The notes below the pieces were generated by a model. The model did not search any database and was not told where the DNA came from. It was given only the letters and a program-made list of their open reading frames with translations. From Escherichia phage vB_VIPECOOM01, in the sequence record OQ721909: a stretch of 64,000 nt of DNA. One strand, written 5' to 3'. This document shows positions 2,418 to 54,647 of this stretch, in pieces (the stretch's first letter is position 1; the number at the start of each line of letters is the position of its first letter). The translations under genes and the position numbers were made by a program.

Positions 2418-2447
2418 ATTATACCACATCCTTGTGGTAAAGTAAAC
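2418..2447 (-). promoter_or_regulatory. early promoter (-35 GTTTAC, 18-nt spacer, -10 TATAAT)
   Basis: Minus-strand reading GTTTACTTTACCACAAGGATGTGGTATAAT; near-identical copy at about 46893..46922. Confidence 0.55.
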
Positions 2448-4264
2448 TACTGGCTCATCCATTCTTTACGAAGGTCAGCATTATCTCCCATGAGCATTTC
2501 AAAAAGCTCTTTCCAGTTCTCAGGAAGTTTAACAACATCATATACTGGATTTTGAATCATCTCACGATATTCAGATTTTTCCAAAGAGCCAAGTCCCTTA
2601 ATATAACGGATGCTATGTTTAGGTAGAGCATCTTTGGCGCTCTCATATTCAGCGACTGTATAAAACCATTCTTGTTTTTTACCGACCTGAGCGATGATTA
2701 CAGGAGTTTTGACAAAGCGAATTCTTCCTTGTTCAAACAATTCTGGCCAATTACTGAAAAATCCGAGCAAAGAAGGATAAATGCTTCCTAGACCATCATG
2801 GTCAGCATCGGTCATAATTGCAATATTATGATAATTCAAGTTTTCAGCTTTTTCACCAAGAACTAATCCAGTGATTGCGCAAATATCAAATAGTTCTTTG
2901 TTTTTAAGCATATCAGCATATGACATGCCCCAACTGTTAAGAACTTTACCACGTAATGGATAACCACCATGAAGTTCTTTATCACGAACATCAATAAGAT
3001 ATCCGATAGCCGAATCACCCTCAGTCAAGAAAAGAGTAGTGTCAGCATCTTTACCACAAAGATTCGCTTTGATATGTTTATGAACCTTAGCTTTAGAGGC
3101 CTTTTTAGCTGCTTTAGTTTCTGCTGCCTTTTCTGCCGCCAATTTACGAGCCAAGGCAGCTTCAATGATTGGCATTAAAATTGCTTCATTATTCAAAATA
3201 GCACGTGAAATCTTTTTAGCATCAAGCTGAATATGACTACGGATTTCACCAAATGGAGAAGTCAAACGCTCTTTAGTTTGAGAGTCAAATCGCATGTTTT
3301 TCATATCACGAACAAACATAACGATAGTCAAACATTCTTTAACACGTGCTTTAGTTACATCAATTTTGAATTTACGTTTGATTTGTGGAATAAGGTCTTC
3401 ACAAATATCATCCATAACACAGTCAATGTGATGACCACCATTCTTAGTATGAATGTTATTAACGTACGTCAATTGACGAAAACCATCCGGTGAACGACCA
3501 ACCGCAATAGAACAGTTTTCTTGTTCTTGAACGATAGCATGCTCATCATATTGGCGTGCGTATTTCTTAAAATTACCCTGAACCTTTTTACCATTAAAGG
3601 TAAATTGAATATCAGGATAAACTACTGCAAGTGTCTGGAGACGATCTAGTGTAATGTCAAGATAAACTTGAGATAGCTCATTAGTTTCAAATGACATAAA
3701 ATCAGGAATGAAAGTAACGCGAGTTCCTTTCCATTTTCCAGGAATATCTTCCCATGATTTATTTTCCATGCCGTTTGAACAACGAACTACAATATTATTT
3801 TGACCGTCGCCAGTTTCACCGACAAACATCACAGAAAAAATGTTAGTTAAACTAGAGCCAACACCGTTCATACCGCCAGTGACGCGTTCTTTGTCATCAC
3901 CGAAGTTACCACCTGCTTTTGGAATAGTCCATGCAGCAACAGGACCAGGAATTTCTTCACCGGTAGGTGTTTTAACCATCGCCTGTGGAATACCACGACC
4001 GTTATCTTCAACTGTTACTTGATTGTTTTTAATAGTAACATTAATTTTATTCGCGAATTTAAACTTAGTACGAATACCTTCATCTACTGAGTTATCGATA
4101 ATTTCATCAATAAGCTTAACAAGACCAGGTACATACTGAACACTTTCCCATTTACCAAACAGAAAGCGCTCATGCATTTCATTAGCAGAAGAGCCAATAT
4201 ACATGCCGCTACGCTTTTTGATATGTTCAATATCGCTCAGAATTTTAATTTCATTCTTAATCAT
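2447..4264 (-). CDS. 39: DNA topoisomerase II large (ATPase) subunit, uninterrupted gp39 as in T2/T6
   Basis: GyrB-like ATPase/TOPRIM motifs (IDNSVDEG, GGMNGVGSS); 605 aa from ATG at 4264, track ORF starts one codon earlier at GTG; no gene 60 split. Confidence 0.9.
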   Translation of the reverse strand: MIKNEIKILSDIEHIKKRSGMYIGSSANEMHERFLFGKWESVQYVPGLVKLIDEIIDNSVDEGIRTKFKFANKINVTIKNNQVTVEDNGRGIPQAMVKTPTGEEIPGPVAAWTIPKAGGNFGDDKERVTGGMNGVGSSLTNIFSVMFVGETGDGQNNIVVRCSNGMENKSWEDIPGKWKGTRVTFIPDFMSFETNELSQVYLDITLDRLQTLAVVYPDIQFTFNGKKVQGNFKKYARQYDEHAIVQEQENCSIAVGRSPDGFRQLTYVNNIHTKNGGHHIDCVMDDICEDLIPQIKRKFKIDVTKARVKECLTIVMFVRDMKNMRFDSQTKERLTSPFGEIRSHIQLDAKKISRAILNNEAILMPIIEAALARKLAAEKAAETKAAKKASKAKVHKHIKANLCGKDADTTLFLTEGDSAIGYLIDVRDKELHGGYPLRGKVLNSWGMSYADMLKNKELFDICAITGLVLGEKAENLNYHNIAIMTDADHDGLGSIYPSLLGFFSNWPELFEQGRIRFVKTPVIIAQVGKKQEWFYTVAEYESAKDALPKHSIRYIKGLGSLEKSEYREMIQNPVYDVVKLPENWKELFEMLMGDNADLRKEWMSQ

Positions 4265-14062: not shown

Positions 14063-14534
14063 TTGTTTTACCTAAAACAACAGTAGGAGCATCATCAAAT
14101 TCATGAATTTTTAGCAAATTTGGATGTAAACTATTCCACACAGAAGAAATAAAGTATGATAACGCATCTTCACTCGCAATTATAAATTTATTTCCTTTAT
14201 CTATTTTCCAACTATATAATGAATCATACGAATAGAAAGATAAAGGTTTATCATTATATTGTTCTGCGCTAACATTAATGTATTCGGATTTAGTAAATGC
14301 TTCAATTGCTCTAAATGGAATATTTGGTACAGTTTCAATGATACCAATCTTTTTAAGCTTTATTTCAGCATCTTCTGGAACTGGCATTGAAACGAAATTT
14401 TCTACGAGATACATTGGGTCACAATAACCCTTATCAATCATTACTGCTACTGTAATTGGAACATCTTTAGCAAACGACATAATATTACTGCTAATATACA
14501 TTTCAAACAAAATCGCTTCCATAATTTTCCTCAA
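14037..14534 (-). CDS. hypothetical protein (mrh region)
   Basis: 165-aa ORF. Confidence 0.45.
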
Positions 14535-15428: not shown

Positions 15429-15458
15429 GTAATTCTCCTTTTATTTAAATTACATGAT

Positions 15459-15466
15459 TATTTATA
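15459..15466 (-). promoter_or_regulatory. late promoter TATAAATA for soc
   Basis: Exact TATAAATA about 30 nt upstream of the soc ATG. Confidence 0.6.
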
Positions 15467-15510
15467 ATAATTCTCACGGCTTTTAAGTCGTCGTTTAAAT
15501 AAACGAGCTA

Positions 15511-16029
15511 TTAATAACCTCGGTCTTGACGAGCGAAGTTTTCAGCATTTTTCAGATAATAAAGTTTAAAAATTTCTTCAGCCGTAAGACCAAGACCTTG
15601 GAACATGTTCAGAACGAAATGAAGAATATCAATCATTTCGAATTTAATTTCCAACTGATCTTGCGGAGACAAATCAGTAATTAGAGTTTCACGGCGTTCA
15701 CCATGTTGAGCTTTCCAAGGCTTCCATACAGCAGATGCATCTTTTTCACCATTGCTCATACCGCCAAGAGAAGTTAGAAGTTCACGGAATTCATCATCAA
15801 TATAATCTTTCTGATTACGCAGCCAATCAACAACTTCACCTGCAGTAGCCAAATCATCAGGATGACGGTTATATTCAGGTTTATCTTTAGCTAAACGAAC
15901 TTGCAGAGATTTCTGCATATCAAGCATAACTTGCAGCGGGTCTTTTTCATCACCGAGAATATCCCAGTATTCATTTTGAGCTTTATCAGCGCCTTCGATC
16001 AATTGTGAACATTCATTAAAGTATGCCAT
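15511..16029 (-). CDS. 56: dCTP pyrophosphatase gp56 (MazG-like)
   Basis: 172 aa from ATG at 16029 (T4 gp56 171 aa); track ORF is N-terminally extended. Confidence 0.8.
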   Translation of the reverse strand: MAYFNECSQLIEGADKAQNEYWDILGDEKDPLQVMLDMQKSLQVRLAKDKPEYNRHPDDLATAGEVVDWLRNQKDYIDDEFRELLTSLGGMSNGEKDASAVWKPWKAQHGERRETLITDLSPQDQLEIKFEMIDILHFVLNMFQGLGLTAEEIFKLYYLKNAENFARQDRGY

Positions 16030-16100
16030 TATTTTTCCTTTCAATTCATGGATTAGTAGATTAATTATACAATAAATATATAAAGCAATAAGGAGGACAT

Positions 16101-16301
16101 ATGGTGCAAAAATTAATGGCACTTGTTAATGCCATCAAAGGTAATAAAAAACGTATAGCTTTTACTATTTCTGCTATGATAGGAATTTTACTTTGGAATT
16201 TTGTTTTATCGCCAGTTGCTATTGCTCATGGCGTTAGTATTCCAGTAATTACTCTTGATACATTCGTAGATTTAGCATTTGCTTTAGTTGGGTTAATTTA
16301 A
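16101..16301 (+). CDS. small two-helix membrane protein (plus strand)
   Basis: 66 aa, hydrophobic; AGGAGG SD 4 nt before ATG; fills the 56/61 gap where T4 carries segF; 3' end converges on gene 61. Confidence 0.45.
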   Translation: MVQKLMALVNAIKGNKKRIAFTISAMIGILLWNFVLSPVAIAHGVSIPVITLDTFVDLAFALVGLI

Positions 16302-17326
16302 ATCTTAGCATATTTAGATAGCCGCATTTTAGCCATCAACCCTTGGGCAATATTATTTTTCATATATTCCATAATTTGTTCAGGGGTTGCACCTTCCTTT
16401 CTAATCATATCATTAACATCTTTTGATTTCCAGGGAGATTTGTCCCAAAACATAACCCTTTCTCCTGCATCAACTAATTTAGTCATTCGTTTAATAGTGT
16501 CAGGGTGACGAGGTTCATTATCTAAAACCCATACACGTCTATCTTTAAATGGAACAATTTCTAGGTCTAATTGGCCACCCGTAATAGCTATACCATTTTC
16601 AATAAAAAGTGAATCTATAGGTCCTTCTAGAACATATACATCACCATCTTTAACCCGTTCGACACCATAGATTTTTGTTGCCTCAGGATAAGCTTTGATG
16701 GTGATATATTTTTGAGGAGCATCTTTCTTTAATGCACGTCCTTGAAAAGACTCAGCTTTTCCATTAGCATTATAAATTGGAATAACAAGACGAGGCTCAG
16801 GTATTTCCTTTTTATATGTTCCTGGTGCTATACTATTAACTAATTTAGGCCATTCGGTTGTAAACCAAAGATATTTCCATTTATCCTTTGGAATACAGCG
16901 AGCTTTTACATATTTTATAATTGGATGGTCTTCCGTCAGTTTATCTAATCTAATACATGACGGAAGAGATTTAATTATTTTCTTCTCAGGTTGTTTAGGA
17001 AGTTCTTTAGGTTTTTCTACTGGACGACTTTTACCTTTTTCTTTTCTTATTTCAAAGATATACTCACGATATAAATCAGGTTCAAACTCCTTTAAATATA
17101 TTCCGATTGGTGCATGATAGTTACAGTTATAACAATGAATATTTCCTTCATTATTATCACCATAATACCATCCACGGGCTTTATTTTGGTCGGTTTTTGA
17201 ATCTCCACAAACAGGGCATCTAAACCGCAATTTAAAAGTTGAACTATTATTTACTTGTGTGAATTTAGGTAAATGAGCCAATGCACGGTATGCAAACTCA
17301 TTATCAATCCAAGGTATTGATGACAT
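16298..17326 (-). CDS. 61: DNA primase gp61
   Basis: 342 aa as T4 gp61; zinc ribbon CPVCGDS...CYNC; ATG checked. Confidence 0.9.
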   Translation of the reverse strand: MSSIPWIDNEFAYRALAHLPKFTQVNNSSTFKLRFRCPVCGDSKTDQNKARGWYYGDNNEGNIHCYNCNYHAPIGIYLKEFEPDLYREYIFEIRKEKGKSRPVEKPKELPKQPEKKIIKSLPSCIRLDKLTEDHPIIKYVKARCIPKDKWKYLWFTTEWPKLVNSIAPGTYKKEIPEPRLVIPIYNANGKAESFQGRALKKDAPQKYITIKAYPEATKIYGVERVKDGDVYVLEGPIDSLFIENGIAITGGQLDLEIVPFKDRRVWVLDNEPRHPDTIKRMTKLVDAGERVMFWDKSPWKSKDVNDMIRKEGATPEQIMEYMKNNIAQGLMAKMRLSKYAKI

Positions 17327-39814: not shown

Positions 39815-40285
39815 TTAATCATGTTTCCACACCCCATCGGTATTTGACCAAAGCCGTTGATTATCTGATCCTCGCCACAGCTTTTTGGTCGGAAGATTTT
39901 TCTCATACTTCCCATCAATAATAACATCAACATATTTAAGCATTTCTAGTTGTTTAATATCTTCAAACTTATATCCTGTCCACAACCAAATGCTTTTATT
40001 CGGATAAAGATTTTTTACCGTTTGAACAATGCAATGAACAACATCTCGGTTATCAGGATAAAGAGGGTCTCCTCCAGTTATAGTTAATCCTTCTATATAA
40101 TCATTATTCAAACATTCAATTAATTGTTCTAGTGTTTCACCAGTGAATGGAACGCCATTTCTAGCATTCCATGTTGATTTATTATAACACCCTTCGCATT
40201 TATGCAAACAACCTGTAACGAAAAGAACGACCCTGCATCCAGGGCCATTCACAAAATCGCAGGGATAAAATCTATCGTAATTCAT
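39815..40285 (-). CDS. nrdG: anaerobic ribonucleotide reductase activase NrdG
   Basis: 156 aa as T4 NrdG; radical-SAM cysteine cluster CLHKCEGC. Confidence 0.85.
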   Translation of the reverse strand: MNYDRFYPCDFVNGPGCRVVLFVTGCLHKCEGCYNKSTWNARNGVPFTGETLEQLIECLNNDYIEGLTITGGDPLYPDNRDVVHCIVQTVKNLYPNKSIWLWTGYKFEDIKQLEMLKYVDVIIDGKYEKNLPTKKLWRGSDNQRLWSNTDGVWKHD

Positions 40286-42099
40286 TGGTGTTTAACCCTA
40301 TGCATGATTTCTTTATTTTTGCCGAGATTAAATCCGCGTTCATTCGGATTTCCCAAATAACCACAAGTTCTTCTTATTGTGTTCATCTTTTTAGGATCAG
40401 TTTCTCCACAAATAGAACAAACAAATCCGTTTTCAGTAGGAGTCATTTCATGGGTACTTCCACATGTAAAACATTTATCTACTGGCATGTTAACGCCAAA
40501 ATAATCTAAATGTTGTGCAGCATAATCCCATACAGCCTCAAGACCTTTTAGGTTATTTTTCATATCAGGAAGTTCAACATAAGAAATGTGACCACCTGTC
40601 GCAATGAAATGATACGGGGCTTCGCGAGAAATCTTTTCAAACGGAGTGATATTTTCTTCTACTGAAACGTGGAAACTGTTAGTGTACCAGCCTTTATCAG
40701 TAACGTCTTTTACACTTCCATATTTTTCGGTATCAAGTTTGCAGAAGCGATAGCACAGGTTTTCAGCAGGAGTAGAATACAAGCTAAAAGCAAAACCGGT
40801 TCTTTCAGTCCACTGCTTAAGACGAGCATTCATTTTAGTTAAAATTTCTTGCCCAATATCACGACCGACAAGGATATTCAATTCGTGAATACCAATGTAT
40901 CCTAAAGACACTGAACTTCTACCGTTTTTAAATAACTCAATTATATCATCATCAGGTTTAAGACGAACCCCGAATGCACCTTCTTGGTAAAGAATAGGAG
41001 CAACAGTCGCTTTAACTCCTTTTAAGGAACTAATTCTACACATCAAAGCTTCAAAACACAAATCCATTCGTTCATTGAACAATTCGGCAAATTTCTGTTC
41101 ATTGAACTGTGTTCCAATATAAGAATCTAACGCAATACGAGGAAGATTCAGTGTTACAACGCCAAGATTATTACGTCCATCAAGAATTTCATTACCAGTC
41201 GAATCTTTCCATACACTTAAGAAACTGCGGCAACCCATTGGAGAAACAGGAATAGATGAACCGGTGATGGCTTTATTGTTCTTAGCCGAAATGATGTCAG
41301 GATACATTCTTTTGCTTGCACACTCTAGAGCAAGCTGCTTAATATCATAGTTCGGATCGTCTTTATAAAGATTAACACCTTCTTCAACGAACATAACAAG
41401 TTTAGGGAAAATAGGAGTTATCCCGTCACGACCAAGACCTTTAATACGATTTTTCAGAATTGCTTTCTGAATCATTCGTTCAGTCCAGTCAGTTCCCGTG
41501 CCAAATGTAATTGTTACAAAAGGCGTTTGTCCATTTGAACTAAAGAGAGTATTTACTTCATATTCATAAGCTTGGAACGCATCATATACGTCTTTTTCTG
41601 TTTTAGACTGGGCGTAATTCAACGCATCAGCGATTTGCCATTTTTCTGCATCCTCAATATGTTTTGCATAGGTGCGTTTAACATAAGGAGAAAGTACTTT
41701 GTCTACATTCGCAAAAGTCGTTCCGCCGTATTGATGGGAAGCAACCTGTGCAGTAATTTGTGCCATAATTGCAGTAGCAACGCCGATTGATTTAGGAGTT
41801 TCAATCTGTGCATTACCGAGCTTAAATCCGTTCTCAAGCATTCCTTTTAAATCTACTAAACAGCAATTAGTAAATGGAAGAGCAGGAGAATAATCAATAT
41901 CATGGAAATGAATAATTCCGCTTTCATGCGCTTTCATAATAAAAGACGGGACCATATTTTTGGCAATGTGTTTAGACACAATACCAGCCATAAGGTCCCG
42001 TTGAGTTGGAAAAACACGAGAATCTTTATTAGCATTCTCGTTTAAAAGGTCTTTATTAGTTTTATGAATCAATCCTTCAATTTCTTTTTCAATTGTCAT
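40282..42099 (-). CDS. nrdD: anaerobic ribonucleotide reductase NrdD, intron-less
   Basis: 605 aa continuous ORF (T4 NrdD 605 aa after intron splicing); C-terminal Zn ribbon and glycyl-radical region. Confidence 0.9.
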   Translation of the reverse strand: MTIEKEIEGLIHKTNKDLLNENANKDSRVFPTQRDLMAGIVSKHIAKNMVPSFIMKAHESGIIHFHDIDYSPALPFTNCCLVDLKGMLENGFKLGNAQIETPKSIGVATAIMAQITAQVASHQYGGTTFANVDKVLSPYVKRTYAKHIEDAEKWQIADALNYAQSKTEKDVYDAFQAYEYEVNTLFSSNGQTPFVTITFGTGTDWTERMIQKAILKNRIKGLGRDGITPIFPKLVMFVEEGVNLYKDDPNYDIKQLALECASKRMYPDIISAKNNKAITGSSIPVSPMGCRSFLSVWKDSTGNEILDGRNNLGVVTLNLPRIALDSYIGTQFNEQKFAELFNERMDLCFEALMCRISSLKGVKATVAPILYQEGAFGVRLKPDDDIIELFKNGRSSVSLGYIGIHELNILVGRDIGQEILTKMNARLKQWTERTGFAFSLYSTPAENLCYRFCKLDTEKYGSVKDVTDKGWYTNSFHVSVEENITPFEKISREAPYHFIATGGHISYVELPDMKNNLKGLEAVWDYAAQHLDYFGVNMPVDKCFTCGSTHEMTPTENGFVCSICGETDPKKMNTIRRTCGYLGNPNERGFNLGKNKEIMHRVKHQ

Positions 42100-48856: not shown

Positions 48857-49264
48857 TCACTCAATTTCAATTTTACTAAATACACAGAATATGATTGAAC
48901 AGACTATATAAGCGCCACACACGGATTGAACTAATACCATCCCAAAGAACCAAACAATATTATCAAACAGTGTTTGTTTTACGTCGAAAGGACGTAAACT
49001 TACAGTAATATTATCACCTTTTTCTATTGAAGAATACATCTCTGGGGAAATATATTCACTAAATCTATAACCGTCTTTGAGTTCATATACGGCAATAAAC
49101 GATAAACTAGACCCTTTTCCTTGTGTTCCTGTAATGGTATTAACTACAGTAACATCATAATCTTTATAGTGCATATAATCATTAATTGCGTAATAACCAT
49201 ATGCAACTACTACACATAAACAACATATCAATAAATTCAATCTTTTAATTATCAACTGTTTCAT
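48857..49264 (-). CDS. membrane protein
   Basis: 135 aa with N- and C-terminal hydrophobic helices. Confidence 0.45.
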   Translation of the reverse strand: MKQLIIKRLNLLICCLCVVVAYGYYAINDYMHYKDYDVTVVNTITGTQGKGSSLSFIAVYELKDGYRFSEYISPEMYSSIEKGDNITVSLRPFDVKQTLFDNIVWFFGMVLVQSVCGAYIVCSIIFCVFSKIEIE

Positions 49265-49319
49265 AATAATCTCAATTAAAAGGGCTTAGAACCATTATAC
49301 CATCCTTGGTATAAAGCGG

Positions 49320-49847
49320 TTATGCGAGTACCGTCTTTAACCGTTCTTCAAACTTCCGAAGAGTATTTTGGCGTTCAGCTCTTTGCTTTTTGTAAGTTTC
49401 AATACGCTCTGAAATGAGAGAGTATCGTTCATTTACTGATTCTTTCATAAAATCAGGAATTTCACGAGAAGCTTTAATCTCGTCAAATTTATCAATAACA
49501 GCTTGCTCTTCAGCAATTAAGTTATCATACATCAAAATATCTTTCTTGATGAACTCAATATCTTCTTGAGTTACACGAGATAATTTAGATGCTTTATCCT
49601 TTTTGTACTGTTCGTTAGTATCACGAGACCAGTGTAATGTACGATTTTTATTCGTATTTTTGTAAATTTCGACAATACCAATCTCATCAATAATAACGAT
49701 CCAATTCCAACGGGATTTGTAAATTTGTCCTCCATCAACAGTGATTTCACCTCCGATTGAGATGTCGTTAAAGAACTTACTCTGTGCTTCAGATTTAAAT
49801 TTACCATCGTTGTAATTTACCAAGTTGAAAATATCTTTAGCGTTCAT
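49320..49847 (-). CDS. hypothetical protein
   Basis: 175 aa; early promoter upstream. Confidence 0.45.
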   Translation of the reverse strand: MNAKDIFNLVNYNDGKFKSEAQSKFFNDISIGGEITVDGGQIYKSRWNWIVIIDEIGIVEIYKNTNKNRTLHWSRDTNEQYKKDKASKLSRVTQEDIEFIKKDILMYDNLIAEEQAVIDKFDEIKASREIPDFMKESVNERYSLISERIETYKKQRAERQNTLRKFEERLKTVLA

Positions 49848-49907
49848 TTTCTGTTCCTCCGTAGTTGATAGGGTAATAATACCACAGAGGAACAGTCTTG
49901 TAAACCA

Positions 49908-50213
49908 CTAAAAGAAACTTCTTTCACAATTTTTTCCACTGAACCATGCGCTTACCGCTTTCTTAGTCTCGGGAGCAGTGTGGTCCATAAACCATTCAAA
50001 GGCAGCCTTTTTATGATTCTGAAGGGCTTCTCGGGCTTTAATCTGCTCACGGTCTATTAACACTAACATATGAGCCTTTCTTGTCACCATGGGCTTCTTA
50101 TGATTTTTTGAATACTCCCAGTCATTTGTCCATCGCATTGTCGTTGCGAATTGAAATACTGCTTCTTTAATTTTAGTTTCGTAAATTTCACGAGCCTTTG
50201 AGTATAACATCAC
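49908..50213 (-). CDS. hypothetical protein
   Basis: 101-aa ORF. Confidence 0.4.
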   Translation of the reverse strand: MMLYSKAREIYETKIKEAVFQFATTMRWTNDWEYSKNHKKPMVTRKAHMLVLIDREQIKAREALQNHKKAAFEWFMDHTAPETKKAVSAWFSGKNCERSFF

Positions 50214-50292
50214 TACCTCCGTTTACCAGTTTAATTCTAGTCATCTTTTTAATGGCAGTCCATATAATCTATTTCTGAACTGCCTTTTTGTC

Positions 50293-51012
50293 TTAGGATT
50301 CTTCTAAATGTCTTTTCTGAAAAGTTGATACCATACTACGATACGGTTCATTTGGATATCCGTGTTTTATAGCTTCCTTTGTAAATTTTCTCCATCCATA
50401 TTTAGTTTCTTTCCAAAGCTCGAATAATTCATCTTCATATTGCCATATAGTTAAATGAGAACGCTTTGCAGCTTTAATTCCATTAATATGCTTTTCTTTT
50501 ACTACAGGATTGCTTAGTTTCTTTTTAATAATATTACTAACTTTTCTAACAAAAGCTGGGTCCTTATATCGTTGTGAAGTTTTTATTGAAGTGTTTAATT
50601 TAGCTTCCGGCGTGGATGTGACCTCTTTCATCTTTTTCTTCATATGCTGTATATGATTAGGATTTTTCCATAAATTTATAGAATGCTTTTTGCATTTTAT
50701 CCTAGTTTCATCTGCAACCTTTCCTCCTTCACCCCCGTATGACAGGTTAACACAGTTTTTTCCATATTTCAATTTACCTGCCATGATATATAATATTTCA
50801 GCTTGTACCATTTTATCATAATTATCAAAAACTTCTAAAACCGTTTTTGATAATATGTGGTCATTTGACACTTTTACACGTTCTATATAATTTCCACTAC
50901 CAACATACGAATCATTGATGTTATTAGTTATATGTCGACCATAATAGTATTTCTTAATACCTGTCTTTAAATTTAATATTTCAGTTTTATAGATAGTAAA
51001 ATATTTTTTCAT
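50293..51012 (-). CDS. GIY-YIG-like (Seg-type) endonuclease candidate
   Basis: 239 aa; N-terminal IYK...GIKKYYYGRH...YVGSG resembles a GIY-YIG module; Lys-rich C-terminal half; ATGA overlap with upstream ATPase gene. Confidence 0.45.
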   Translation of the reverse strand: MKKYFTIYKTEILNLKTGIKKYYYGRHITNNINDSYVGSGNYIERVKVSNDHILSKTVLEVFDNYDKMVQAEILYIMAGKLKYGKNCVNLSYGGEGGKVADETRIKCKKHSINLWKNPNHIQHMKKKMKEVTSTPEAKLNTSIKTSQRYKDPAFVRKVSNIIKKKLSNPVVKEKHINGIKAAKRSHLTIWQYEDELFELWKETKYGWRKFTKEAIKHGYPNEPYRSMVSTFQKRHLEES

Positions 51013-51977
51013 TTTAATAATACCGTTTCAGCAATTTCTTCCCAACCGTTTTTGTCGGTCATAATAAAGTCAGCAAGATAAAGAGCAGTACGCAGTGAAA
51101 CATTGCGTAAACGATTAACATTAACTTTCATCCATGATAATGCTTTATAAGTTTCTTCATCAGAAAGACCGCGCTTTTGCATCATGTCAGTTGAAAGAAT
51201 AACATCTTCAACCCTGACCATAATTTCTTCATTAGTGTGAACACCCAAATCCAAATAAACTGAGCGGGACACTAATGCTTGTAAGTGTGGAGCAAGTTTA
51301 GTACCACGGTCTAATTCGCGGTCAATGTCAACGTTTGTGATAAAAACAATCGTTCCTTTAAATTCAAACTCACGCTCAATGCCTTTTTCTTCTAAGTAAG
51401 AAGACGCAGTGCTCCAGCAGACTTTACGGGTCTCTCCGGTGTCCAGAGCGGCTTTTAGAAGATTAAGAATATCCATATCAGAGAAAACATCCACATCATC
51501 AATCAAAAGGACAGAATTCTCTTCACGATTATTCCAAAGCTGCTCATAAAGACCAATACCAGAGATTTTACCATTAATGCTTTTATATTCAATGTATCCA
51601 ATATCATTTGCTTTATTTAAAGCTTTATCTAAAGAATACGTTTTACCAATACCTGCTGCGCCAGAGATAATTAATGAACGAATATTTCCATTAATAATAC
51701 CGTTCGTCATCATTCCCATAACATTAAATCTTTTATTAATGCGGGTTTTCATATCTTCATACGATTCTTTAACTTCTTCAACTTTTACACCATCATATGA
51801 AATATCTGATTTGTAAACCCAAACACCGCGACGTTTACCGTCAATTTCAACAAAAACTTTACCATCTCCTTGTGCATCTACCGGAGCATTATCTGGGAAC
51901 CATTCGCCTAAGAGCTCAAAAGTTCCAGAGATTTCTTTACCGAAGTAGATACCCTTATTGATAGTTACAGTTTTCAT
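51009..51977 (-). CDS. P-loop (AAA-like) ATPase
   Basis: 322 aa from ATG at 51977; Walker A GAAGIGKT, Walker B LLIDDVD; track extension is translated promoter/leader. Confidence 0.6.
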   Translation of the reverse strand: MKTVTINKGIYFGKEISGTFELLGEWFPDNAPVDAQGDGKVFVEIDGKRRGVWVYKSDISYDGVKVEEVKESYEDMKTRINKRFNVMGMMTNGIINGNIRSLIISGAAGIGKTYSLDKALNKANDIGYIEYKSINGKISGIGLYEQLWNNREENSVLLIDDVDVFSDMDILNLLKAALDTGETRKVCWSTASSYLEEKGIEREFEFKGTIVFITNVDIDRELDRGTKLAPHLQALVSRSVYLDLGVHTNEEIMVRVEDVILSTDMMQKRGLSDEETYKALSWMKVNVNRLRNVSLRTALYLADFIMTDKNGWEEIAETVLLK

Positions 51978-52062
51978 TTTATTCTCCAAATCCGTATCAG
52001 TTGATAGTTGTATAGTACCATAAAGCTTTATGCTTGTAAACTGTTTTGTGAAAAAATTTTGA
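51978..52062 (-). promoter_or_regulatory. conserved promoter-leader cassette, copy C
   Basis: About 40 nt of leader and -10 nearly identical to copy B; -35 GTTTAC; ends at the ATPase ATG. Confidence 0.55.
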
Positions 52063-52070
52063 AATAAAAA

Positions 52071-52088
52071 GGGAGCCCGAAGGCTCCC
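52071..52088 (-). terminator. UUCG hairpin after the NTase-like gene
   Basis: GGGAGCC-UUCG-GGCUCCC, 7-bp stem. Confidence 0.55.
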
Positions 52089-52090
52089 TA

Positions 52091-53104
52091 TCATTTATAA
52101 TAACTTCGGTGGTTTTCAAGATAAACCTTCTCAAGGAAGTCATCCCAGAAACCCATGTCTACTTTTTGCTGCATACCGTTCTTAGAAGCTTCAATTGATG
52201 CTGCTTCTACTTGATCGACCACATCTTCCAAAAACTCTTGAACAGTTTTAAATGGATGCTTGCCCAGCTTCACGTCGAGAATAAATGGGGCATCTTGTAG
52301 TGGATAAACCAAGTCACCAGTTTTGTAAATTTCCAATAGTTGGAGTCCACCACGACAAGCATGACTCAGAGCTTTCCAGTCAATGCCCTCATTCGCTTCA
52401 GCCTTACGAGCACGTTCACCATATTCAGCATCAAGTTTATTCAGAGATTGCTTAAGCTCAATAAGAGAAAGTGTAGTCTGATATTTACGACCCAACACAG
52501 TATAGAACGTTTGCGGTCCCGTTTTCTCATGATTATGGAACACCCATTCACAGAATTCATTTTCTGGAAGACGATGCTTAATATCTTCAACTTTAGTGCG
52601 ACGTTGCTTAATGGAACCGTCTTCTTGATAATCAACCCACTGATCGGGGATTTGATTAACTACTTTCAATACATCACGCAATGCGGCCAAACGAGAACCC
52701 TTAACACCATATTTAGAAGCTTGCTTGCGGACATATCCTAAATAGGATTTCATGTTAGTTGTATAAAATCGTGAACGATTGTCTTGAATAAACTTCCATA
52801 CATCAGGCAAATCAGATTTAACTACTAGTTCAGGTGGAGTGTGAAGCATATCCAATGCTACAGTTTCACCATCTGCTGCTAATTTAAAGAAATACTTAAG
52901 ACTGTATAGTTCATGGTCAATATCATCTTTAGTGTTTTTAGATGATGTGTTGTTAGTGTTTTTACTCATATGCTCTTTAACATTTCCGATAAGAATATCG
53001 CGAGCAGGAGGAACAAAGATTTCTTTAAAATCTACATCAGATTCTGGAGTAGAAGTTCCATAAAGATGACTACCAAAATAGCTTTTCATTACTGTTTTCA
53101 TCAT
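52091..53104 (-). CDS. nucleotidyltransferase-fold protein (pol-beta superfamily)
   Basis: 337 aa; N-terminal FGSHLYGTSTPESDVDF matches the GS...DxD minimal NTase motif. Confidence 0.5.
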   Translation of the reverse strand: MMKTVMKSYFGSHLYGTSTPESDVDFKEIFVPPARDILIGNVKEHMSKNTNNTSSKNTKDDIDHELYSLKYFFKLAADGETVALDMLHTPPELVVKSDLPDVWKFIQDNRSRFYTTNMKSYLGYVRKQASKYGVKGSRLAALRDVLKVVNQIPDQWVDYQEDGSIKQRRTKVEDIKHRLPENEFCEWVFHNHEKTGPQTFYTVLGRKYQTTLSLIELKQSLNKLDAEYGERARKAEANEGIDWKALSHACRGGLQLLEIYKTGDLVYPLQDAPFILDVKLGKHPFKTVQEFLEDVVDQVEAASIEASKNGMQQKVDMGFWDDFLEKVYLENHRSYYK

Positions 53105-53562
53105 TCAGCCTTATATTCAATAACAGGACACACTTTAGCTTTACGGGCTTTTAAAAATTCGACGATAATAGATTTCTTTGGTTGAATAGGAGGTAAACCT
53201 TTATACGCCCTATCAATATTTTCTACATGTAAAGCATAATCCTTTTTCCATTTATAATCTTTATATTTTTCATGCAGTTGTGCAGGAATAACAAATGAAC
53301 CAATAATAAGTAAAACAAGCAAAATGGCAAGTATAAATGCTGATGGAATAAGAGTCCATAAACTACCAAAAATAAGCCATTTCTGCATGATTTCTGCGCA
53401 GATGATAGTTAGACCTGCGAGTATAGTACATCCGAAAAAAGAAACGAAAAATGTAGGAATGGCAATAGACCAAAAATACGCGCATAGTGTCTTAGGTCGT
53501 TTCCATTCATCATTAAACATTTTGAATAATTTATAGTGCCAAGAGCTTTCATTAATAATCAT
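53101..53562 (-). CDS. membrane protein
   Basis: 153 aa with several hydrophobic helices. Confidence 0.45.
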   Translation of the reverse strand: MIINESSWHYKLFKMFNDEWKRPKTLCAYFWSIAIPTFFVSFFGCTILAGLTIICAEIMQKWLIFGSLWTLIPSAFILAILLVLLIIGSFVIPAQLHEKYKDYKWKKDYALHVENIDRAYKGLPPIQPKKSIIVEFLKARKAKVCPVIEYKAE

Positions 53563-54092: not shown

Positions 54093-54647
54093 TCACTTTG
54101 AAATCATAGTTGGAATGACAGAATCAAGATAAGTCTTTAGCGCAATAGCTTCGTCTTTGGTAAATGTGACAATATGTGATCGAAAATCGTCAATTTGGCG
54201 AATAGTTAAGACATCTCCCTCTTCATAACATTTTGATACATTTAAAAGAGTTTCATCATTCTGATTGCAAGCGTTAGTAATAATAGCATTGCAATTTTTG
54301 AGCCATTTTAAACTATGTTTTCTTTCATTAGAATAATAAAAATATTTAATCTTAGCTATAAAACTATCCCAATGGATAACTGATAAACACATTGACTCAC
54401 TGTTAATATTAAATCCTGGGCATGAAGAATAAAAATGAATTTTGTGCTCATCATTGATGCTTACTATTTTATCAGTATAAGGATATTCAATTTGGGTTAA
54501 ACGAATGATTTCACTGGGCGTAAAATATAGCATATCGTCTTCTTGCGTCAAACGATACATATTATTTACTTTTTCTATAGCCAATTCACCAAAAAGCGGA
54601 CTAACTTCTAATACTAATCGTTTCATATTAATCCTTTTTATTAGCAT
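54093..54647 (-). CDS. hypothetical protein, paralogue of 53565..54086
   Basis: 184 aa; shared C-terminal motif. Confidence 0.45.
   Translation of the reverse strand: MLIKRINMKRLVLEVSPLFGELAIEKVNNMYRLTQEDDMLYFTPSEIIRLTQIEYPYTDKIVSINDEHKIHFYSSCPGFNINSESMCLSVIHWDSFIAKIKYFYYSNERKHSLKWLKNCNAIITNACNQNDETLLNVSKCYEEGDVLTIRQIDDFRSHIVTFTKDEAIALKTYLDSVIPTMISK

Follow-up and report, generated by a model that had tools for sequence, protein, structure and literature searches.

Is the open reading frame (ORF) of 239 codons that abuts the end of nrdC.10 in Escherichia phage vB_VIPECOOM01 a mobile endonuclease gene, and if so, what ties it to that position? We examined this question in a stretch of 64,000 nucleotides (nt) of the phage (sequence record OQ721909), referred to here as the window. 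The ORF occupies positions 50293-51012 of the minus strand, the strand that carries all the genes in this part of the window, and encodes 239 amino acids (aa) followed by a TAA stop codon. It is present in the ORF list, and the chance of 239 stop-free codons at the base composition of the window is about 8.5e-8, which upholds the initial annotation in treating it as a real gene. Its product matched PHROG 314, 'homing endonuclease', with E=1.5e-30. A stretch of 4.2 kilobases (kb) around the gene is 100% identical, at the same coordinates, in Escherichia phage vB_VIPECOOM03 (OQ721911.1, Tequatrovirus), whose record annotates the gene as VIPECOOM03_00090 'homing endonuclease'. Rfam revealed neither a group I intron nor any other RNA family at threshold between 49500 and 52500, and the gene is therefore free-standing. 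From the results described below, we consider it very likely that the ORF encodes a free-standing GIY-YIG homing endonuclease of the Seg family, and that it resides in an optional cassette of 732 nt at the stop codon of nrdC.10; judged from its sequence, it is probably a functional gene of this family.

A GIY-YIG catalytic domain followed by basic modules

The N-terminal part of the product had been likened to the GIY-YIG motif of Seg-type enzymes on the strength of three segments, all of which were found (IYK at residues 7-9, GIKKYYYGRH at 18-27 and YVGSG at 36-40). We delimited the catalytic domain to residues 1-97 (50722-51012, minus strand), with TIY at residues 6-8, YYG at 23-25, H27, the series D34-x-Y36-x-G38-S39-G40, E72, N89 and G93-G94. 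Two results spoke against this assignment. On its own, the query sequence matched no nuclease family in Pfam (E<=1), NCBIfam (E<=10) or the PDB sequences (E<=10), and neither PF01541 nor PF19835 was matched directly even at E<=1. Additionally, a counterpart of the catalytic Arg27 of I-TevI was not evident in the query, where the helix that bears R27 and H31 in I-TevI gives way to the Seg-type loop H27...D34.Y36.GSG (H-x6-D-x-Y-x-GSG). Arginines are present at positions 26 and 45 of the query, and a conserved Arg column after the YIG strand was found neither in the query family nor in SegA, SegD, SegE and SegF of T4, so that the T4 Seg proteins are in the same position. As for Pfam, T4 SegF and two homologues that share the insertion site of the query likewise had no GIY-YIG match at E<=0.01. 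Because T4 SegF is listed as active (PMC2988022), the missing match is not evidence against membership of the query in the family, and it shows the limited sensitivity of the models, not exclusion from the GIY-YIG family.

Since the single-sequence searches found no nuclease family, profile and fold methods were needed. A word-indexed protein search found only two relatives of the query, and phmmer against 1.84 billion representatives gave 1440 matches at E<=1e-3; the query and 97 of the best of these matches were aligned. Across the 98 sequences, E72 and N89 were invariant, and Y8, Y23, G25, H27, D34, Y36, G38, S39, G40, G93 and G94, all present in the query, were conserved in at least 90% of the members. 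Pfam recognised PF19835 (SegE_GIY-YIG) in 29 members, PF01541 (GIY-YIG) in 14 and NUMOD3 in 30. The family profile matched the whole catalytic domain of I-TevI (1LN0, E=1.3e-3), placing the invariant Glu and Asn on E75 and N90. The AlphaFold2 model, with a predicted local distance difference test score of 95.7, has a beta-beta-alpha-beta-alpha domain in residues 1-90, in which TIY lies on a predicted strand (residues 4-14) and YYG on another (residues 20-29); the query thus has the three-stranded sheet flanked by helices of the GIY-YIG fold. These results show that residues 1-97 adopt this fold and keep every invariant or nearly invariant residue of the family, and the resemblance first noticed in the motifs is borne out by the I-TevI profile match, the alignment of the Seg profiles and the fold.

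The remainder of the protein is basic, as had been proposed for its Lys-rich C-terminal half: residues 98-239 contain 26 Lys and 7 Arg against 15 Asp and Glu. Roughly between residues 116 and 184 (50461-50667, minus strand) there are four tandem helical repeats of 17 residues, with prolines at 118, 135, 152 and 169, that is, at a spacing of exactly 17, and with one helix per repeat in the model. The repeats resemble NUMOD3, although the query is not among the family members that match it, and this segment is presumed to be a linker that contacts DNA. Residues 185-239 (50296-50460, minus strand) form a helical domain with the Seg-type motif W..E....W...G...F.K.A...GYPN..Y..M...F, presumably a helix-turn-helix DNA-binding domain.

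An optional cassette at the nrdC.10 stop codon

The gene upstream of the ORF, nrdC.10 (51009-51977, minus strand), encodes a P-loop ATPase-like protein with the Walker-A sequence GAAGIGKT; its matches to AAA_14 and AAA_22 were weak, both under the Pfam cut-off. The endonuclease start does overlap the stop of this gene, as initially stated: the ATG (51012-51010) and the nrdC.10 TGA (51011-51009) together read ATGA, and the 3' end of nrdC.10 is the insertion point. Both junctions were aligned in 17 genomes, nine with the gene (this phage, RB32, T6, AR1, RB14, RB68, SHFML-11, ESh34 and RB3) and eight with an empty site (T4, ASO78A, PYPS2T, slur11, Shfl2, PE37, CAM-21 and Kelasse). This alignment superseded a MAFFT alignment of the window and T4 alone, in which the right junction was misplaced. 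Together with the comparison to T4, it delimited a cassette of 732 nt (50297-51028) found only in the carriers, with identical boundaries in all nine. Its left edge may lie a few bases further left, given that position 50293 is T in all carriers and T or A in the empty-site genomes. In place of the cassette, the latter have about 36 nt, AAGKCCTCTTATGAATT(T)ATTTCAGAAGAGTAACCT on the plus strand; together with the bases next to them, these form a hairpin that spans the stop codon of nrdC.10. The whole spacer from nrdC.10 to nrdC.9 is 94 nt in T4.

The distribution of the gene in a larger sample was examined in the records of the phage collection. The DNA of the gene was present in 65 of them, always with at least 97.9% identity, and an uninterrupted junction of the T4 type was found in 434, including T4; the ORF is thus not universal, and the cassette is carried by about 13% of the Tequatrovirus-type records that have this junction. 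It is not private to this phage, as it also occurs in T6, RB32, RB14, RB51, RB3 and AR1. The proposal of a candidate mobile insertion therefore stands as regards an optional cassette with a clean empty site, shared among T-even phages.

The cassette also includes the last six codons of nrdC.10 and its stop (51009-51029, minus strand), which differ between the two alleles. The carriers end this gene with GAA ACG GTA TTA TTA AAA TGA (ETVLLK*), and most of the empty-site genomes sampled with GAG GTT ACT CTT CTG AAA TAA (EVTLLK*), so that the peptide is nearly identical in spite of the recoding. In T4 itself, the end of nrdC.10 (…ATGYSSEINS*) departs from that of the other non-carriers (…AEVTLLK*) because of an indel of 1 nt just upstream of the stop-codon hairpin; this divergent end lies at 14336-14380 of the T4 sequence used here (54335-54379 of the T4 record).

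Seg relatives and the same site in distant lineages

The initial annotation had recommended an alignment to the Seg and I-TevI catalytic domains, and both relationships were recovered, the second as described above. In hhalign, the query family aligned with T4 SegA, SegD, SegE and SegF over 201 columns covering residues 1-237 (99.96% probability, E=5.6e-39), and tblastn detected segB (E=4e-6) and segF (E=1e-2). Like the query, these four T4 proteins have the motif set Y..Y(K)T.N...Y.G.H.T..(N)D.Y.GSG ... E ... N..GG.GG, a size within 205-239 aa and middle repeats rich in basic residues, and SegA and SegF share its C-terminal W..E..W..G...K.A...GYPN..Y..M..F domain. The genes are alike too, being free-standing between conserved genes and sporadically distributed. 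In contrast, identity between the query and the four proteins is only 22-26%, and the beta-hairpin of its GIY-YIG domain is four residues longer than in I-TevI and the T4 Seg proteins. With I-TevI the query shares the Tyr of GIY, the Tyr-x-Gly of YIG, the aligned Glu and Asn, and a modular layout of nuclease, linker and DNA-binding domain; it differs in having no zinc finger and in being encoded outside any group I intron, whereas I-TevI is intron-encoded, and the two are 18% identical in a structural alignment (1LN0/1MK0). A role as a GIY-YIG nuclease that does not home, for example in degrading host DNA or in a restriction-like function as for T4 EndoII, is barely credible, since it is the Seg proteins, not EndoII, that the product matches in its full-length architecture and its C-terminal domain, and since the gene lies in an optional cassette faithful to one site.

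The orthologues of the gene in RB32 (RB32ORF093c), T6 (KMB99_gp092), RB14, RB51, RB68 and AR1 are the same gene at the same site, with 98-99.7% DNA identity and no substantive difference. The GenBank entry of RB32, from 2006, labels it 'putative site-specific intron-like DNA endonuclease, similar to seg'. The label 'segE', assigned on similarity in the records of AR1 and RB68, was rejected, because the true segE lies between inh and uvsW and T4 SegE is 22% identical to the query. The site between nrdC.10 and nrdC.9 is used by no characterised endonuclease gene of T4, and a 2010 review of the mobile elements of this phage lists none there (PMC2988022). No paper came to light when the literature was searched in full text for RB32ORF093c and nrdC.9; the gene is already annotated in public records, catalogued but apparently without characterisation in the literature searched.

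In three more distant lineages, a homologue with 41-46% identity to the query immediately follows an nrdC.10 orthologue (74-77% identical): Klebsiella phage Wolf_ER13 (endonuclease 46%, nrdC.10 74%), the metagenome contigs L021 and L022 (endonuclease 41% over the aligned part, nrdC.10 77% in L021) and the metagenome contigs L024 and L025 (endonuclease 45%, nrdC.10 74% in L024). The nrdC.10 orthologues in question precede the endonuclease in Wolf_ER13 (L020), L021 and L024. At the junction of L021, ETVLLK is followed by ATGA, as in the window, and in Wolf_ER13 and L024 the nrdC.10 codons of the empty type are kept and the endonuclease starts 8 nt past the stop codon; judged from these two junctions, the insertion point lies in the loop of the hairpin, at the stop codon. 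For one homologue (P0002), an apparent truncation at the N-terminus proved to be a gene-calling artefact: at the DNA level its ORF is full length and has the ATGA overlap too. After these, the closest homologues share about 30% identity with the query and represent another Seg-like lineage (metagenome contig L026, 3001-3678, and phage IME341), inserted immediately after uvsY and overlapping its end. The location of these proteins elsewhere ties the lineage that includes the query to the 3' end of nrdC.10.

Several observations weigh against a gene that still homes. At least three copies are disrupted, in AR1 (1-nt deletion), RB3 (7-nt insertion) and FL12 (frameshifted). The flanking marker gradient that had been anticipated was not seen in the nine carriers and eight empty-site genomes: none of 284 informative flank columns was fixed between the two groups (best uncorrected p 0.007), flank identity was equal for carrier-carrier, empty-empty and mixed pairs, and no co-conversion tract was detected. 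Identity among carriers is 98.8% in the cassette, only slightly above the 97.5-97.9% of the adjoining 1 kb on either side. The K-Y-G..N motif, invariant in T4 SegA, SegD, SegE and SegF, is absent from the query. Finally, recoding is not needed for stable insertion, because Wolf_ER13 and L024 keep codons of the empty-site type.

The frameshifts, in at least 3 of the 65 copies, the flanks devoid of a co-conversion signal and the lost motif would all suit a Seg-family gene that has ceased to home and is kept, decaying or inert, as a passenger through linkage to nrdC.10. We regard this as unlikely, given that the copy in the window is full length with all the family-invariant residues, and that two homologues sharing its site are intact though they have also diverged from K-Y-G..N. 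Moreover, the seven intact copies of the endonuclease gene have 19 variable codons with synonymous changes only against 8 with amino-acid changes (an excess of about 2.4-fold), compared with 43 against 1 in nrdC.10, which argues for purifying selection, weaker than that on nrdC.10.

The presence of the same site in lineages with nrdC.10 at 74-77% and the endonuclease at 41-46% identity indicates that the association of gene and site is old. Given this, and flanks that are unlinked to carrier status, the patchy distribution could also be explained if the T-even phages acquired the gene long ago and have since lost it repeatedly and exchanged it by ordinary homologous recombination, with no spread driven by the endonuclease. 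Such a history seems quite unlikely to us: the boundaries are precise and identical in the nine carriers, the hairpin of the empty site is intact and free of any deletion scar, and the identity of the cassette among carriers at least equals that of the flanks. Recombination among T-even phages could have erased the co-conversion tracts, and their absence does not discriminate between this history and homing, because rampant recombination would erase them in either case. Since no difference is fixed in the flanks examined, the only consistent difference able to protect the carriers, if the homing endonuclease is active, would lie within the replaced segment.

Expression, neighbouring loci and proposed homing

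A consensus scan located a site resembling the early promoters of T4, GTTTAC-N14-atggTActaT, upstream of nrdC.10 (52012-52040, minus strand); ASO78A has an annotated early promoter at the equivalent position, and in the window the site is preceded by a terminator hairpin (52070-52089). The annotated start of nrdC.10 at 51977 has a GGAG Shine-Dalgarno sequence. The ORF list gives nrdC.10 as 361 aa with a start at 52094, and this extension (51978-52094) crosses both the terminator hairpin and the early-type promoter; the start at 51977 is the plausible one. No Shine-Dalgarno sequence precedes the endonuclease start, and no T4 late promoter (TATAAATA) was found from 15.5 to 57 kb. At 51045-51017 there is a sigma-70-like match, which was discarded, as transcription from it would begin at or inside the ATG, and it was one of 15 such matches where 8.4 are expected by chance. 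The site at 52012-52040 is likely the source of a transcript shared by nrdC.10 and the endonuclease gene, their co-transcription being read from this arrangement.

Downstream of the cassette lies nrdC.9 (DUF7203; 49908-50210, minus strand). The hairpin GGCAGT-N19-ACTGCC between the two (50254-50284, minus strand) is outside the mobile unit, because it is retained in carriers and empty-site genomes alike. Apart from the cassette, several close relatives (W143, N2, NIC06P2 and KMB22) have an extra 260-630 base pairs in the stretch corresponding to window positions 49000-53200, and ASO78A (4491-4900 of L013) and Kelasse (4478-4678 of L019) have extra small ORFs in the spacer between nrdC.10 and nrdC.11; this interval of extra DNA is a second variable spot beside the endonuclease cassette.

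The initial annotation had also considered the classical endonuclease sites of T4 in the window to be empty, and we compared each of them with the T4 annotation. The gene nrdD is one uninterrupted coding sequence (40282-42099) with neither intron nor I-TevII, and mobD is absent, its slot being occupied by an ORF of 153 aa (53101-53562) that encodes a predicted membrane protein; both statements were correct. That segF is missing was also correct, but the site given for it, between genes 56 and 61, was not, as segF of T4 lies between soc and 56 (PMC2988022), a gap that measures only 82 nt in the window (15429-15510). In addition, mobA, mobB and mobC are absent from the window and segA is absent from its uvsX/beta-gt gap. 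In RB32, the ORF in the mobD slot is annotated as one that 'replaces mobD', and RB3 has both mobD and the disrupted endonuclease gene at nrdC.10. Two other differences from T4 were observed. Between gene 56 (15511-16029) and the primase gene 61 (16298-17326), where T4 has dam, the window has no dam, and positions 16030-16297 hold only an ORF of 201 nt on the plus strand (16101-16301). The large subunit of topoisomerase II is encoded by a single ORF of 605 aa (2447-4264), whereas its T4 equivalent is split into gene 60, a mobA remnant and gene 39; the T4-type split and insertion are absent from the window.

From these arrangements, we propose that the endonuclease gene would share a transcript with nrdC.10, initiated at the early promoter that precedes the latter, and would be translated at a low level by termination and reinitiation at the ATGA overlap; the low level is suggested because the gene has no Shine-Dalgarno sequence of its own, and co-transcription with such reinitiation is the simplest reading of its expression. 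In a mixed infection, the C-terminal modules would bind the empty-site allele at or around the hairpin of the nrdC.10 stop codon, and the GIY-YIG domain would cut this allele nearby. Repair of the break from a carrier genome would then copy the cassette into the cut genome, a process known from SegF, SegG and SegE as intronless homing or localized marker exclusion. The carriers would escape cutting in that the insertion splits the hairpin; in the Tequatrovirus allele, the recoding of its 5' arm would contribute as well.

The mechanism could be extended further, with the near-palindrome of the stop-codon hairpin being specifically recognised, the recoded terminus and the ATGA forming an immunity and expression module that evolved to travel with the gene, and the breaks also driving recombination or amplification of nrdC.10 and nrdC.11, in a way similar to SegB of T6. 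We consider this extension speculative and rather improbable. The two genes, ATPase-like and nucleotidyltransferase, are neighbouring accessory genes. A related possibility is that the enzyme mainly benefits the phage, through marker exclusion of competitors or amplification of nearby accessory genes. In T6, segmental amplification of anti-defence loci, among them the gp49.1-nrdC.1 region, is reported to be promoted by SegB (PMC13096335); T6 also carries the endonuclease gene at nrdC.10, and the purifying selection among intact copies would be compatible with such a benefit. On the other hand, nothing found here ties the gene to amplification or defence evasion, and about 87% of close relatives lack it, so that a benefit of this kind appears distinctly improbable.

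The element is an ordinary member of the Seg family at its own conserved site, already annotated in public records, and its activity, its target and homing itself are what we infer from the sequence. GIY-YIG domains have reportedly been fused to programmable DNA-binding modules for genome editing, as in I-TevI-TALE fusions, and a new target specificity may have a minor practical value, with little significance beyond the genetics of T-even phages. Within that field, the gene would add to the catalogue of T-even homing endonucleases one more lineage of the Seg family, whose insertion site is defined as the stop codon of nrdC.10, and the carriers T6, RB32 and vB_VIPECOOM01, set against the empty-site T4, would provide a natural pair of alleles for work on homing and marker exclusion.
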